From Candidatus Methylomirabilota bacterium (GTDB taxonomy: Bacteria; Methylomirabilota; Methylomirabilia; Rokubacteriales; DASRDR01), in assembly GCA_036257195.1 (NCBI GenBank), contig DATAFX010000031.1, positions 1 through 60,547 on the forward strand: a stretch of DNA of 60,547 bases, in the 5' to 3' direction. The position numbers and the translations under genes are program-made. Positions 24,262-30,121 of this stretch are shown in pieces. Numbering within the stretch: position 1 is the first letter of the stretch; the number at the start of each line of letters is the position of its first letter. The notes under the pieces are model-generated. The model did no database searches. It had not been told where the DNA came from and saw only the letters and a program-made list of their open reading frames with translations.

Positions 24262-25380
24262 GTGACGCGGCTCGTCCTGGTCGGCGGCGGTCATGCCCAC
24301 CTCCGCGTTCTGGCCGATCTCGCCGCTCGGCCGCTCTCCGGCGTCCAGGTCACGCTCGTCTCACCCTCCGCCTGGCACCACTATTCCGGGATGGTGCCTG
24401 GCTTCCTCCAGGGGGTGTACGCCGAGTCGGAGCTGACGATCGATCTCGCCGGACTCGCTGTTCGGGCGGGGGCGCGACTCGTCGAGGCCCACGCCGAGCG
24501 GCTCGACGTCACGGGGCGCAGCGTGGAGGCGGGCGAGACGCGGCTGCCCTTCGACGTCCTGTCGCTCGACGTGGGCGCCGATCCCGCCGGGCTTGATGTT
24601 CCCGGCGCGCGCGAGCACGCGATGCCCATCCGTCCGATGCGCCGGGCGGTCCAGCTCCTGGCGCGGATCGACGCCCTGGCGACGCCGGGGCGACGCGGCC
24701 CGGTCCGTGTCACGGTGGTGGGCGCGGGCGCCGGAGGCGTCGAGGTGGCGCTCGCCGTCCACCGCCGGATCCGGGCGCGGGGCTCCCGGCCGGAGGTGAC
24801 CCTGGTCGAGGCCGCGTCGGACGTCCTTCCCGACTACGCGGCCCCGGTGCGCCGCCGCGCGGCGGGCATCCTCGCCCGGCGCGGCGTCGGGATTAGGCTC
24901 GGCCGCGCAGTGAGCCGGGTGGAGGCGGGTGCCATCTACCTCACCGACGGGCCCGGCGCCCCGGCGGACCTGGTCGTGTGGATCGCCGGCGCGGCAGGCC
25001 CCGCCTTGCTCGCGCGCGCCGAGCTCCCGCTCGATCTCCGTGGTTTTCTCCTGGTCGGTCCCACGCTCCGGGCGGTGGACGGCGCGCCGGTCTGGGCTGC
25101 GGGCGACTGCGCGACGCTGGCCGAGCACCCGGAGACGCCGAAGGCGGGCGTGTACGCGGTCCGTCAGGGACCGGTGCTGGCGCGGAACCTCCGCGCGGCG
25201 CTGGGCGCGGGGACACCCGCGCCGTACGTCCCGCAGCGGACGTTCCTGTCGCTCCTCAATACTGCGGACGGCAGGGCCCTGCTCCGCTGGCACGGGGTCG
25301 TCAGCCACTCGCGCTTCGCGTGGTGGCTCAAGGACCGTATCGACCGCCGCTTCGTCCGCCGCTACCGCGCGCGGGCGTGA
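24262..25380 (+). CDS. pyridine nucleotide-disulfide oxidoreductase family flavoprotein (the type found fused N-terminally to SelD in some organisms)
   Basis: From GTG 24262: VTRLVLVGGGHAHLRVL, second dinucleotide motif VTVVGAGAGGVEVA, AAGDCA. The family resemblance is from memory of this N-terminal pattern and needs an HMM check. Confidence 0.75.
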   Translation: MTRLVLVGGGHAHLRVLADLAARPLSGVQVTLVSPSAWHHYSGMVPGFLQGVYAESELTIDLAGLAVRAGARLVEAHAERLDVTGRSVEAGETRLPFDVLSLDVGADPAGLDVPGAREHAMPIRPMRRAVQLLARIDALATPGRRGPVRVTVVGAGAGGVEVALAVHRRIRARGSRPEVTLVEAASDVLPDYAAPVRRRAAGILARRGVGIRLGRAVSRVEAGAIYLTDGPGAPADLVVWIAGAAGPALLARAELPLDLRGFLLVGPTLRAVDGAPVWAAGDCATLAEHPETPKAGVYAVRQGPVLARNLRAALGAGTPAPYVPQRTFLSLLNTADGRALLRWHGVVSHSRFAWWLKDRIDRRFVRRYRARA

Positions 25381-25463
25381 CTCCCTCTTGCGTGACCGGC
25401 GGAGGGCGTCCTACCGTGGACTCGCCCTTTCCGAGCGCCCTGATGGAGGGAGGACGGCGGGCC

Positions 25464-25697
25464 ATGGGTCGTCGAGCGCTGTTCTGGGCCGGCGCGGTGC
25501 TGGTCGGGCTCATCCTCCAGCAGTTCGCCGTCTGGTGGTTCGGGCCTGAGGCGAATCGCTGGCTCGGCGCGGCCCTCCTGATCGTCGTCCTGCTCTCGGT
25601 CCCGGCGGTCCTTCTGACGAGCCGCGTCGGGGGGCTGAGCCGCTGGCGGCGGTGGCGCGAGGCGCGTCGGCGCGCCCTACGGCACCACCGGAGCTGA
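25464..25697 (+). CDS. hypothetical small membrane protein (2 TM)
   Basis: MGRRALFWAGAVLVGLILQQFAVWWF...LGAALLIVVLLSVPAVLL. GGAGGGAGGA lies upstream of ATG 25464. Weak call. Confidence 0.35.
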   Translation: MGRRALFWAGAVLVGLILQQFAVWWFGPEANRWLGAALLIVVLLSVPAVLLTSRVGGLSRWRRWREARRRALRHHRS

Positions 25698-28677: not shown

Positions 28678-29786
28678 GTCGTCGCGCCGCCGCAGGAGCT
28701 CCCGGCGCCGGCCGTGCACCCGAAGCAGTGGCGGGCGGTGCGGATCCGGCGCGCCTCGAGCCAGGCCGGATCGAAATCGCGCACGTGAGGGCGCCGCCCC
28801 GGAGGCGCTTGGACGGGCAGCTCGAGCATCTGGTTGAAGTCGCAGTCGTGGAGCGTCCCGTCCCACGCGACCGAGATCGTGTTGCGGCACATGAGCCCCG
28901 CGACCGCCGCCGGGTTGAACGTCCCCACCAGCCGCGCCATGTACCCCTGGAGGTTGCCGCTCTCGACGAGCCAGTCGAGGAAGCGGCTGATCGGCATGTT
29001 GGCGAGCGTGAACAGCCGGTCGAACGTGACCCCGTGGTGGCGGGCGAGCCCCGCCTTCCAGTCCCGCTCGAGCGAGGCCTGCGAGCCCGGAAGGAAGGCC
29101 CCGACGGGGTTGCTGACAAGCGTCAGGCGGCGCCGGGGGTTCCCCTTCCCGTAGCCTGCGGCGTTCAGCCGTCTCAGCGCCTCGATCGAGCGGTCGAAGG
29201 TCCCCTCACCCCGCTGCGCGTCGGTGTTGAGCCGACGGTCGTGAGGGAGGGAGCACACGATCTCGACTCCGCGCTCGGCGAGCCACTCGGGGAGGTCCGC
29301 GCAGCGGGGCAGGAGGAGGACCGTGAGGTTGCACCGGTCCAGCACGTGCTTGCCCCGCGCCACGGACTGGTCGACCAGGTAGCGGAAGTGCGGGTTGAGC
29401 TCGGGCGCCCCCCCGGTGATGTCGACGGTGTGGGCGGCCGTCCGGTCGAGGGCGGCGAGGCACAGGTCCACCGTCTCGCGGTCCATGTTCTCCATGACTC
29501 GATCGGGCCCGGCGTCCACGTGGCAGTGCCGGCAGGTCATGTTGCACAGGCGGCCCACGTTGATCTGGAAGATCTCGAGGTCCACCGGTCTCAGCTCGGG
29601 CCAGCCACACGCCCCGAGGGCCGCTCCGAAATCGCCGCCCGGGAGCGGCATCGTCTCGAGGAGCCGGAGCTGGGCCGCGGGCGAGGCGAGGGGAGCGCCG
29701 CGGGCGCGGAGGCTCCGGGTCCCCTTGGGGCCGGCGGCCAGGGTCGCGAGGTCGGGGTCGGCGCTGGGCGCCGCCGGCAGCGTCAC
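28674..29786 (-). CDS. arsS: radical SAM / Cys-rich-domain protein, ArsS-like
   Basis: Radical SAM cluster motif RLCNMTCRHC. C-terminal HDCDFNQ...RHCFGCTAGAGSSCGGATT tail. GTG 29786 overlaps the upstream stop (GTGA). Confidence 0.8.
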   Translation of the reverse strand: MTLPAAPSADPDLATLAAGPKGTRSLRARGAPLASPAAQLRLLETMPLPGGDFGAALGACGWPELRPVDLEIFQINVGRLCNMTCRHCHVDAGPDRVMENMDRETVDLCLAALDRTAAHTVDITGGAPELNPHFRYLVDQSVARGKHVLDRCNLTVLLLPRCADLPEWLAERGVEIVCSLPHDRRLNTDAQRGEGTFDRSIEALRRLNAAGYGKGNPRRRLTLVSNPVGAFLPGSQASLERDWKAGLARHHGVTFDRLFTLANMPISRFLDWLVESGNLQGYMARLVGTFNPAAVAGLMCRNTISVAWDGTLHDCDFNQMLELPVQAPPGRRPHVRDFDPAWLEARRIRTARHCFGCTAGAGSSCGGATT

Positions 29787-30121
29787 TGCGCCATCCCCGC
29801 GTGCCGCGCGTGCTCGAGCATCTGGACGCCGTGGACCAGAGACGCCCCGCCCCGGATGGCCGAGGCCACGTGGACGGCTTCCGTCATCTGCTCGACGTCG
29901 GCGCCCTTCTCGAGGCACGCTCTCGTGTACGCGTCGATGCAGTAAGGGCACTGGACGGCGTGCGCCACCCCCAGCGCGATGAGCGCCTTCTCGCGCTCAC
30001 CGAGCGCGCCCTCGGCGAACACCGCGTTGTACCAGGCGAAGAATTTCTCGGCGAGCTCCGGGTTCCCCTGGGCGATGGTCCCGAACTTCCCGAGGTGCTC
30101 GGGCGCGTAGTAGCTCTCCAT
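29783..30121 (-). CDS. AhpD/carboxymuconolactone decarboxylase-fold CxxC protein (peroxidase-like partner of ArsS-type genes)
   Basis: 112 aa with ALIALGVAHAVQCPYCIDAY (CxxC). Confidence 0.8.
   Translation of the reverse strand: MESYYAPEHLGKFGTIAQGNPELAEKFFAWYNAVFAEGALGEREKALIALGVAHAVQCPYCIDAYTRACLEKGADVEQMTEAVHVASAIRGGASLVHGVQMLEHARHAGMAQ

Follow-up and report, generated by a model that had tools for sequence, protein, structure and literature searches.

What does an ArsS-type radical S-adenosylmethionine (SAM) operon do when a disulfide reductase and a TVP38/DedA membrane protein are built into it and no arsM gene lies nearby? The question is raised by five genes on contig DATAFX010000031.1 (assembly GCA_036257195.1) of a Candidatus Methylomirabilota bacterium (Rokubacteriales); the whole stretch analyzed, 60,547 nucleotides (nt) with a G+C content of 72%, is called the window here. 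A first-pass annotation made from the sequence alone had taken the missing arsenite methyltransferase ArsM, together with the reductase, the TVP38 protein, and a nearby flavoprotein of the type fused to the selenophosphate synthetase SelD in other organisms, as a hint that the module may perform different or additional arsenic, selenium, or sulfur chemistry. The comparisons reported below lead us to a different answer: the operon is probably an ArsS-type organoarsenical (arsenosugar or arsenosugar-lipid) operon into which an already existing redox and membrane module of two genes has been built. Assigning the operon core to arsenosugar synthesis is well supported, and the reductase-TVP38 pair most likely assists arsenic chemistry and marks no new chemistry, because it is also found within the arsenic clusters of several further phyla. 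Two other answers are weighed along the way. The pair, together with the nearby flavoprotein, could be an independent membrane redox or lipid-homeostasis module that was merely captured and does nothing specific for the ArsS pathway, or the module could handle selenium, tellurium, or sulfur, for example by adenosylating selenide or a selenol, and make a seleno- or thio-sugar conjugate.

The operon and its arsenosugar-type core

Five co-directional open reading frames (ORFs) run along the minus strand from position 30121 down to 25677, as the first-pass annotation had listed them, and their third-position GC of 0.91 to 0.95 is a strong coding signal. The first gene (29783 to 30121) encodes an AhpD-like CxxC protein of 112 amino acids (aa) and is followed by those for a 370-aa radical SAM protein (28674 to 29786), a 508-aa FAD/NAD(P)H disulfide reductase (27151 to 28677), a TVP38/DedA membrane protein of ~243 aa with a VTT domain (26405 to 27136; the GTG start at 27136 was picked by comparison with the closest genome, L001), and, last in the operon, a 243-aa transferase of the GT2 fold (25677 to 26408). 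GTGA start/stop overlaps join the AhpD-like and radical SAM genes (29783 to 29786, GCGCAGTGACG), the radical SAM and reductase genes (28674 to 28677, ACGACGTGAGTC), and the TVP38 and GT2 genes (26405 to 26408, CCCTCGTGAAGCTG), and the fourth junction, between reductase and TVP38, is a gap of 14 nt. L001 and L002, the two genomes closest to this one, keep the first two of these overlaps. The five genes form one tight operon, and the overlaps point to probable translational coupling of its members. They had also been read as an argument for stoichiometric co-expression, which asks too much of them: tight 4-nt overlaps are ordinary in high-GC bacteria and occur at 7 of the 44 same-strand junctions of the window (three of the seven lie in this operon), and stoichiometric co-expression does not follow from them. 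A promoter and terminator scan of positions 24000 to 32000 found nothing and is uninformative at this G+C content.

Hidden Markov model (HMM) searches bore out every family membership assigned in the first-pass annotation, with the curated cutoff exceeded wherever one is given. The radical SAM protein scores 406.2 bits on the ArsS model TIGR04167 (cutoff, 300), covering model positions 3 to 302 of 303, and also matches PF04055 and, in its C-terminal domain, PF12345 (DUF3641, 174.8 bits). The CX3CX2C radical SAM motif is CNMTCRHC (C81/C85/C88), and the Cys-rich tail, HCFGCTAGAGSSCGGATT, agrees with the family signature HC(F/Y)GCTAG...S(C/U)GG. Phylogenetic placement had been proposed as a check, and it puts the protein inside the ArsS family: in a neighbor-joining tree of 153 sequences, which is distance based and carries no support values, the clade of the window branches among clades linked to AhpD or to arsM. 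ArsS generates a 5'-deoxyadenosyl radical from SAM that combines with dimethylarsenite to give DDMAA (5'-deoxy-5'-dimethylarsinoyl-adenosine); this reaction is redox neutral, and adenine is removed afterwards (PMC13598754; bioRxiv 10.64898/2026.04.29.721666). Because the window ArsS is 64 to 70% identical to cyanobacterial, arsM-linked ArsS proteins and forms no clade apart from them, we infer that it likewise adenosylates dimethylarsenite to DDMAA, and the same closeness speaks against selenium or sulfur as its substrate. The copy of the PDB that was searched held no ArsS structure.

The AhpD-like protein, in which the previously noted QCPYC motif is present, scores 176.6 bits on TIGR04169 (cutoff, 120), a model named [quoted passage not shown] and 62.8 bits on the CMD domain PF02627. 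It also matches the AhpD region of NF041537, an NCBIfam family of ArsM/AhpD-domain fusions. The GT2 protein, at 260.6 bits on TIGR04283 (cutoff, 182), belongs to a family labeled [quoted passage not shown] (transferase 2); elsewhere such proteins are often fused to TIGR04282/DUF2064 (transferase 1), and they adjoin reductase-TVP38 genes with or without ArsS.

Close relatives and a selenocysteine form of ArsS

Co-conservation of the genes in relatives had been named as a further check, and it holds at two distances. The ArsS gene is 88 to 90% identical in two Candidatus Rokubacteria metagenome-assembled genomes (MAGs), L001 and L002, which preserve the entire neighborhood from a TrpB-like gene through the S9 peptidase gene, and the same locus is also found in further Rokubacteria and Methylomirabilota MAGs. 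Four metagenome contigs examined (L239 to L242) encode ArsS proteins 72 to 78% identical to that of the window; the CMD-ArsS-VTT-reductase set is kept in all four and the GT2 gene in three (L240 to L242), with the order of VTT and reductase reversed relative to the window and sometimes with a second VTT gene. In two of them, L239 (5839 to 6684) and L242 (5856 to 6683), the AhpD-like gene is directly preceded by an ORF resembling glycine reductase B (GRDB-like, ~170 aa) and a ~100-aa ORF that belongs to no family, neither of which has a counterpart in the window.

The relatives also carry genes beyond the set. DUF547 genes are found in L240 and L241; an inosine-uridine nucleoside hydrolase (L241, 13184 to 14050) lies beside CMD-ArsS-VTT-reductase-GT2; and a metallophosphoesterase and a stand-alone DUF2064/TIGR04282 gene are present in L242 (5032 to 5829 and 11595 to 12248). 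Taking adenine off DDMAA calls for the activity of a nucleoside hydrolase. The nucleoside hydrolase, metallophosphoesterase, and DUF2064 protein of these relatives are candidates for later pathway steps, and none of them is encoded in the window.

In L240 and L242, codon 365 of ArsS, which is Cys365 in the window, reads TGA in frame, and five more sense codons precede the real stop (8060 to 8125 in both contigs); these are selenocysteine forms of ArsS, which gene callers had ended at "GSS." Selenocysteine (Sec) substitutes for Cys chiefly at redox-active sites, so Cys/Sec365 of ArsS would need a reductant. Selenoprotein members within the family might be taken to favor selenium chemistry, but selenocysteine in an enzyme is uninformative on its substrate.

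The reductase-TVP38 pair

The reductase scores 792.8 bits on NF004991 (cutoff, 620). Its redox pair is C72/C77, its N terminus carries a conserved extension, and the motif GGDCLVTGCVPSK is present in its sequence, as are the ArsS motifs that had been read from the letters; the statement that it has neither a metal-binding domain nor a C-terminal Cys pair was also correct, as Pfam finds no HMA domain and the C terminus (...LGAWLRWIR) contains no Cys. Identification as MerA was ruled out by these two absences and by a score of 391.8 bits on the MerA equivalog TIGR02053, under the cutoff of 454.45. Among solved structures, MerA and Lpd come closest, at 275 bits or less, with MerA (5x1y, 275 bits) at the top. 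The TVP38 protein matches the VTT domain PF09335 at 94 bits.

COG0398 DedA proteins are recorded as being fused most often to pyridine-nucleotide disulfide reductases (PF07992/PF02852; PMC10127716). Homologues 63 to 66% identical to the window reductase exist as fusions with a VTT domain (P0195 and P0214) or an LMWPc domain (P0224), and the nearest homologues outside Rokubacteria include these. P0214 immediately precedes a CMD-ArsS gene pair, and a gene 4 kb away encodes a GT2 domain, TIGR04282, and TIGR04283 in one triple fusion. P0224 (630 aa, 65% identical to the window reductase) has an N-terminal LMWPc domain with a CIKNAGRS loop (CX5R-S) and a GCGDACP motif, and judging from these motifs the domain looks ArsC-like. 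Its gene is the first in a cluster (L155, 4813 to 12416; ENA ERZ21828385 contig-100_1905) that continues with a VTT gene, a gene for an 869-aa fusion, a PHO4 transporter gene, and a TIGR04283+TIGR04282 fusion. The 869-aa protein joins a SPASM/Rv1681-like radical SAM domain to an ArsM-like methyltransferase (NF008823, 235 bits; cutoff, 263). It was considered as an ArsS-ArsM fusion and rejected, as the radical SAM part does not belong to TIGR04167 and the ArsM-like part falls just under the cutoff, and it is kept only as a link to arsenic; the cluster may represent a second, undescribed radical SAM route to organoarsenicals. This company of an ArsM-like fusion, an apparently ArsC-like domain, and a transporter for phosphate, which arsenate mimics, argues against selenium, tellurium, or sulfur as the business of the accessory genes. 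Lipid genes (fatty-acid desaturase, fatty-acid hydroxylase, and LPG synthase) lie near two such fusion clusters.

Within the reductase, residues 1 to 35 hold a subfamily-invariant N-terminal motif (P..D.HN..L..NVHP..W.NP....Y), residues 470 to 508 form a Trp-containing C-terminal extension, and Cys340 and Cys378 are invariant too. In VTT-reductase fusions this N-terminal motif serves as the linker, and it may therefore contact the DedA domain.

Distribution of the pair among ArsS and reductase loci

ArsS neighborhoods were compared at 139 distinct loci, not counting that of the window, obtained in two scans of GTDB species representatives; the loci are the best 80 of ~600 candidates per scan and a nonrandom sample. 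Neighbors were called by tblastn with single reference proteins at a 50% coverage threshold in flanks of 8 to 10 kb, and because many contigs are short, the neighborhood counts are lower bounds. An AhpD-like gene lies directly upstream of ArsS at 98 of the 139 loci; an ArsM-like gene is nearby at 26, a TIGR04283-like GT2 gene at 14, TVP38 at 13 (mostly immediately adjacent), the reductase at 10, and the TIGR03169 flavoprotein, to which we return below, at 4. No arsM was nearby at 113 of the 139, so ArsS without a neighboring arsM is the rule and its absence here says little.

The accessory genes are, moreover, found where arsM is present. In cyanobacteria, TVP38 lies between arsM and arsS in L013, L020, L022, L030, and L083; arsM-arsS clusters that also hold the reductase are L009, L022, L030, and L084, and GT2 genes are likewise present within such clusters. 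In two Pseudanabaena loci (L022 and L030) a TIGR03169 gene directly follows ArsS. By HMM, the ArsM of these cyanobacterial clusters is of the arsenosugar type (NF038099, 564 bits), and the TIGR03169 proteins there score 414 to 428 bits. The neighborhood statistics that the first-pass annotation had called for thus show that reductase and TVP38 are not peculiar to ArsM-less modules, and its inference of a different arsenic, selenium, or sulfur chemistry, which was built on the missing ArsM and on these very parts, is not supported. In the ArsS tree, linkage to reductase or TVP38 appears in at least five separate clades, namely, Rokubacteria, a cyanobacterial clade, Pirellulales, Holophagales/Acidobacteriota, and a deep clade of deltaproteobacterial, Binatia, and other lineages whose ArsS members score ~414 bits on TIGR04167.

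The view from the reductase was taken at 80 species loci with a reductase 52 to 64% identical to that of the window; these loci, like those reached through TIGR03169, are ascertained by the gene used to reach them. TVP38 is adjacent or fused at 58 of the 80, DUF547 is present at 16, ArsS lies within 8 kb at 13, and a TIGR04283-like GT2 gene is found at 11. The pair is also linked to TIGR04282/04283, DUF547, and TIGR03169 apart from ArsS.

Arsenic genes sought in the window

That the window holds no ArsM-type methyltransferase, no transferase 1, and no ars resistance genes had been stated in the first-pass annotation, and HMM and tblastn searches agree. All four methyltransferases of the window fall far under every ArsM model cutoff. 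Searches of the whole 60.5-kb window by tblastn for ArsM (three references), TIGR04282, and LMWPc/ArsC-like proteins returned generic SAM-domain matches only, the best E value with three verified TIGR04282 domains as queries being 0.09. References for DUF547, nucleoside hydrolase, and phosphoesterase had no match in the window, and the additional window ORFs that were scanned are unrelated to arsenic resistance. A glyoxalase-fold ORF (9482 to 9973) was considered as ArsI and rejected, having generic VOC matches only and no Cys pair. A TPMT-like methyltransferase is encoded on the minus strand at 7966 to 8589, 17 kb from the operon; it scores 56 bits on TIGR03840, against a cutoff of 223, and has a weak TehB match.

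The convergent TIGR03169 flavoprotein

The second flavoprotein (24262 to 25380, plus strand, 372 aa) is of the SelD-N-terminal type and convergent to the operon, as had been noted; it scores 353.5 bits over its full length on TIGR03169 (cutoff, 310). It is a stand-alone protein, however, with Pyr_redox domains only and no SelD domain, and its nearest solved relatives are type II NADH dehydrogenases (NDH-2), such as 4nwz. A gap of 296 nt separates its gene from the operon, and since it lies 46 nt 3' of, and co-directional with, the S9 peptidase gene, it stands outside the ArsS transcription unit. No SelD-like ORF was seen in the window, although no search aimed at SelD was run.

Among 79 loci surveyed through TIGR03169, four have the Rokubacteria/Methylomirabilota arrangement and nine are proteobacterial loci (Burkholderiales, Rhodoferax, Sphingomonadales, and others) at which a reductase gene adjoins TIGR03169 on the same strand. 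Seven of these nine have TVP38, some have DUF547, and none has ArsS. Because proteobacterial loci join TIGR03169 to the reductase without ArsS, the convergent flavoprotein more likely belongs with the reductase-TVP38 pair than with ArsS. Matches to "PstB" near TIGR03169 loci are generic ABC ATPases at ~30% identity and were disregarded.

Three further observations concern the surroundings of this gene. In the window it is the last of a plus-strand run (20022 to 25380) that begins with an FAD oxidoreductase (20022 to 21257), a second GT2 gene (21264 to 22127), and the S9/TolB-propeller peptidase (22230 to 24215). A rhodanese gene occupies its place in L240. In L273, L282, L288, L306, L309, and L312 (Burkholderiales, Sphingomonadales, and Comamonadaceae), TVP38, reductase, in some cases DUF547, and TIGR03169 form a string with no ArsS nearby.

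Other genes of the window

An old yellow enzyme (OYE)-like FMN oxidoreductase (PF00724, 124.9 bits) is encoded 112 nt upstream of the operon on the minus strand. The first-pass annotation had its position right (30234 to 31754), but nothing ties it to the module, because an OYE homologue neighbors ArsS only within Rokubacteria (L001, L002, and the window, 3 of the 155 sequences searched), and we rejected it as a member. A 292-aa ORF (33256 to 34134, plus strand) with a strong coding signal and no Pfam or NCBIfam match is 71 to 76% identical in L001 and L002. The right half of the window shows signs of an integrated mobile element and of toxin-antitoxin loci: a Prim-Pol/PriCT/AAA_25 primase-helicase gene, confirmed by Pfam, is located at 57674 to 59584 (plus strand), and two small apparent antitoxin/PIN toxin pairs were recognized by eye at 37073 to 37722 and 50488 to 51056 (both plus strand).

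Comparison with known systems

The closest characterized pathway is that of arsM (slr0303) and arsS in Synechocystis sp. PCC 6803, with which the window operon shares the TIGR04167 radical SAM family, the CX3CX2C motif, and the DUF3641 tail, and from which it differs in having no arsM and in being headed by an AhpD-like gene. The Synechocystis TVP38 homologue slr0305 may lie between arsM and arsS, an arrangement that gene numbering and PMC3836016 make plausible. The two genes arsS and arsM are co-transcribed in Synechocystis (bioRxiv 10.1101/2022.09.23.509062). Of the rSAM/selenodomain set TIGR04167/04169/04282/04283, three of the four families are present in the window, adjacent and above cutoff, whereas TIGR04282 is missing and the reductase and DedA genes are inserted between ArsS and GT2. 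Like the COG0398 DedA-reductase fusions and pairs, the window sets a PF09335 protein beside a PF07992/PF02852 reductase, but as separate genes, reductase then TVP38, inside an ArsS operon. With MerA, the closest solved fold family, the window reductase has in common the FAD/NAD(P)H core of disulfide reductases and a CxxxxC redox pair; it differs in its sub-cutoff score and lacks an HMA/NmerA domain, the C-terminal Cys pair, and accompanying mer genes, and in the L155 fusion it is the LMWPc domain that occupies the NmerA position.

In mycobacteria, Lpd passes electrons by way of lipoyl-DlaT to AhpD and on to the AhpC peroxidase. The window likewise pairs a gene for an Lpd-like flavoprotein disulfide reductase with one for a CxxC protein of the AhpD fold, but the operon contains no AhpC and no lipoyl carrier, and the AhpD-like protein is the short, 112-aa single-domain TIGR04169 form.

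Part of this picture is known already: standard annotation would label three of the five genes "arsenosugar biosynthesis," and the DedA-reductase pairing is recorded. What the searchable literature does not discuss is the recurrent joining of the ArsS set and the DedA-reductase pair, plus the network with TIGR03169, DUF547, and TIGR04282/04283. No paper found there mentions both arsenosugar and DedA, and the family accessions appear only in surveys; that literature also agrees with the first-pass annotation that the roles of the reductase, TVP38, and AhpD-like components are not experimentally assigned.

Discussion

If the operon is an arsenosugar or arsenosugar-lipid operon with an added redox and membrane pair, its parts could work together as follows. 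Electrons from NAD(P)H would reach the AhpD-like CxxC protein by way of the C72/C77 disulfide of the reductase, in parallel with the mycobacterial Lpd-AhpD relay. Such a relay would hold the arsenical in its trivalent state, for example by way of dimethylarsenate reduction, and would perhaps also keep the redox-active Cys/Sec365 of the ArsS tail reduced. The TVP38/DedA protein, as the habitual and often fused partner of the reductase, would anchor it at the membrane and may move the arsenical or a lipid-linked product across that membrane, and the TIGR04283 GT2 protein would hand the arsenoribosyl unit to an acceptor. The neighboring NDH-2-like flavoprotein of the TIGR03169 family probably functions with the reductase-TVP38 pair, and methylated arsenic would be supplied by an arsM elsewhere in the genome or by the environment. 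The exchange of Sec and Cys at position 365, the NF041537 ArsM/AhpD fusion, the LMWPc-reductase fusion, and the lipid genes near two clusters lend this relay mechanism support.

Several observations weigh against this reading. The core step of ArsS is redox neutral and has no obvious need of a reductant. Clusters with both the AhpD-like gene and TVP38 are rare in cyanobacteria, where the two are mostly alternatives, and this weakens the idea of an obligatory reductase-to-AhpD relay. ArsM, ArsC, ArsR, Acr3/ArsB, TIGR04282, nucleoside hydrolase, and DUF547 are all missing from the 60.5-kb window; the window therefore explains neither where dimethylarsenite comes from nor how adenine is removed. 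The accessory roles are ones that we infer, and no characterized NF004991 member is close to the window reductase. Finally, 67 of the 80 reductase loci have no ArsS within 8 kb, and the pair must therefore have an ArsS-independent function.

This last point also speaks for the view that the pair, with TIGR03169, is a general membrane redox or lipid-homeostasis module that the operon happened to capture. It is joined by the TVP38-reductase-DUF547-TIGR03169 clusters of Burkholderiales and Sphingomonadales that have no ArsS, by the position of TIGR03169 outside the ArsS transcription unit, and by the nature of COG0398 DedA proteins, which are proposed phospholipid flippases, tied to aerobic metabolism and in some cases essential (PMC10127716). 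We nevertheless consider mere capture unlikely. Linkage to ArsS recurs in at least five separate ArsS clades and in several phyla, it outlasts the rearrangement of gene order among close relatives, and it involves probable translational coupling; TVP38 occurs at the ArsS loci far more often than we would informally expect of a family that has a few copies per genome, and the pair also keeps company with TIGR04282/04283 where ArsS is not nearby. That the module handles selenium, tellurium, or sulfur instead is the least probable of the readings and quite doubtful, since the same accessory genes stand in cyanobacterial clusters with an arsenosugar-type ArsM and selD, selA/B, and ybbB were not seen in the window (with the limit on SelD given above), even though arsM and ars genes are absent there, TIGR03169 is by its model name and description a family fused to SelD elsewhere, a weak TPMT-like gene lies in the window, and a DedA protein has been linked to selenite resistance in a paper referenced in PMC10127716.

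The assignment to arsenosugar or arsenosugar-lipid synthesis can be carried one step further, to a proposal that is speculative and that we think has only a small chance of being right. The reductase-TVP38 pair, TIGR03169, DUF547, and TIGR04282/04283 might constitute a widespread, undescribed membrane pathway that feeds and finishes ArsS chemistry. Its flavoprotein/thiol relay would be devoted to reducing pentavalent methylated arsenicals, import of the arsenical or flipping of the arsenosugar lipid would fall to the DedA protein, and organisms without ArsM, this member of the Rokubacteria among them, could scavenge environmental dimethylarsenate into arsenolipids.

Arsenosugars and arsenosugar lipids count among the major arsenic species of the environment. 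To our knowledge, ArsM and ArsS catalyze the only established enzymatic steps of arsenosugar synthesis, and all steps past DDMAA are unassigned. The gain from this locus is a testable extension of that pathway and not a new kind of system: the NF004991 reductase, the COG0398 DedA protein, TIGR04169, TIGR04283, TIGR04282, DUF547, TIGR03169, and occasionally a nucleoside hydrolase make up a candidate set for the missing steps and for the supply of trivalent substrate. The operon also gives the very common, uncharacterized DedA-reductase fusions their first specific functional context, and it suggests a part in organoarsenic cycling for soil lineages like Rokubacteria and NC10.

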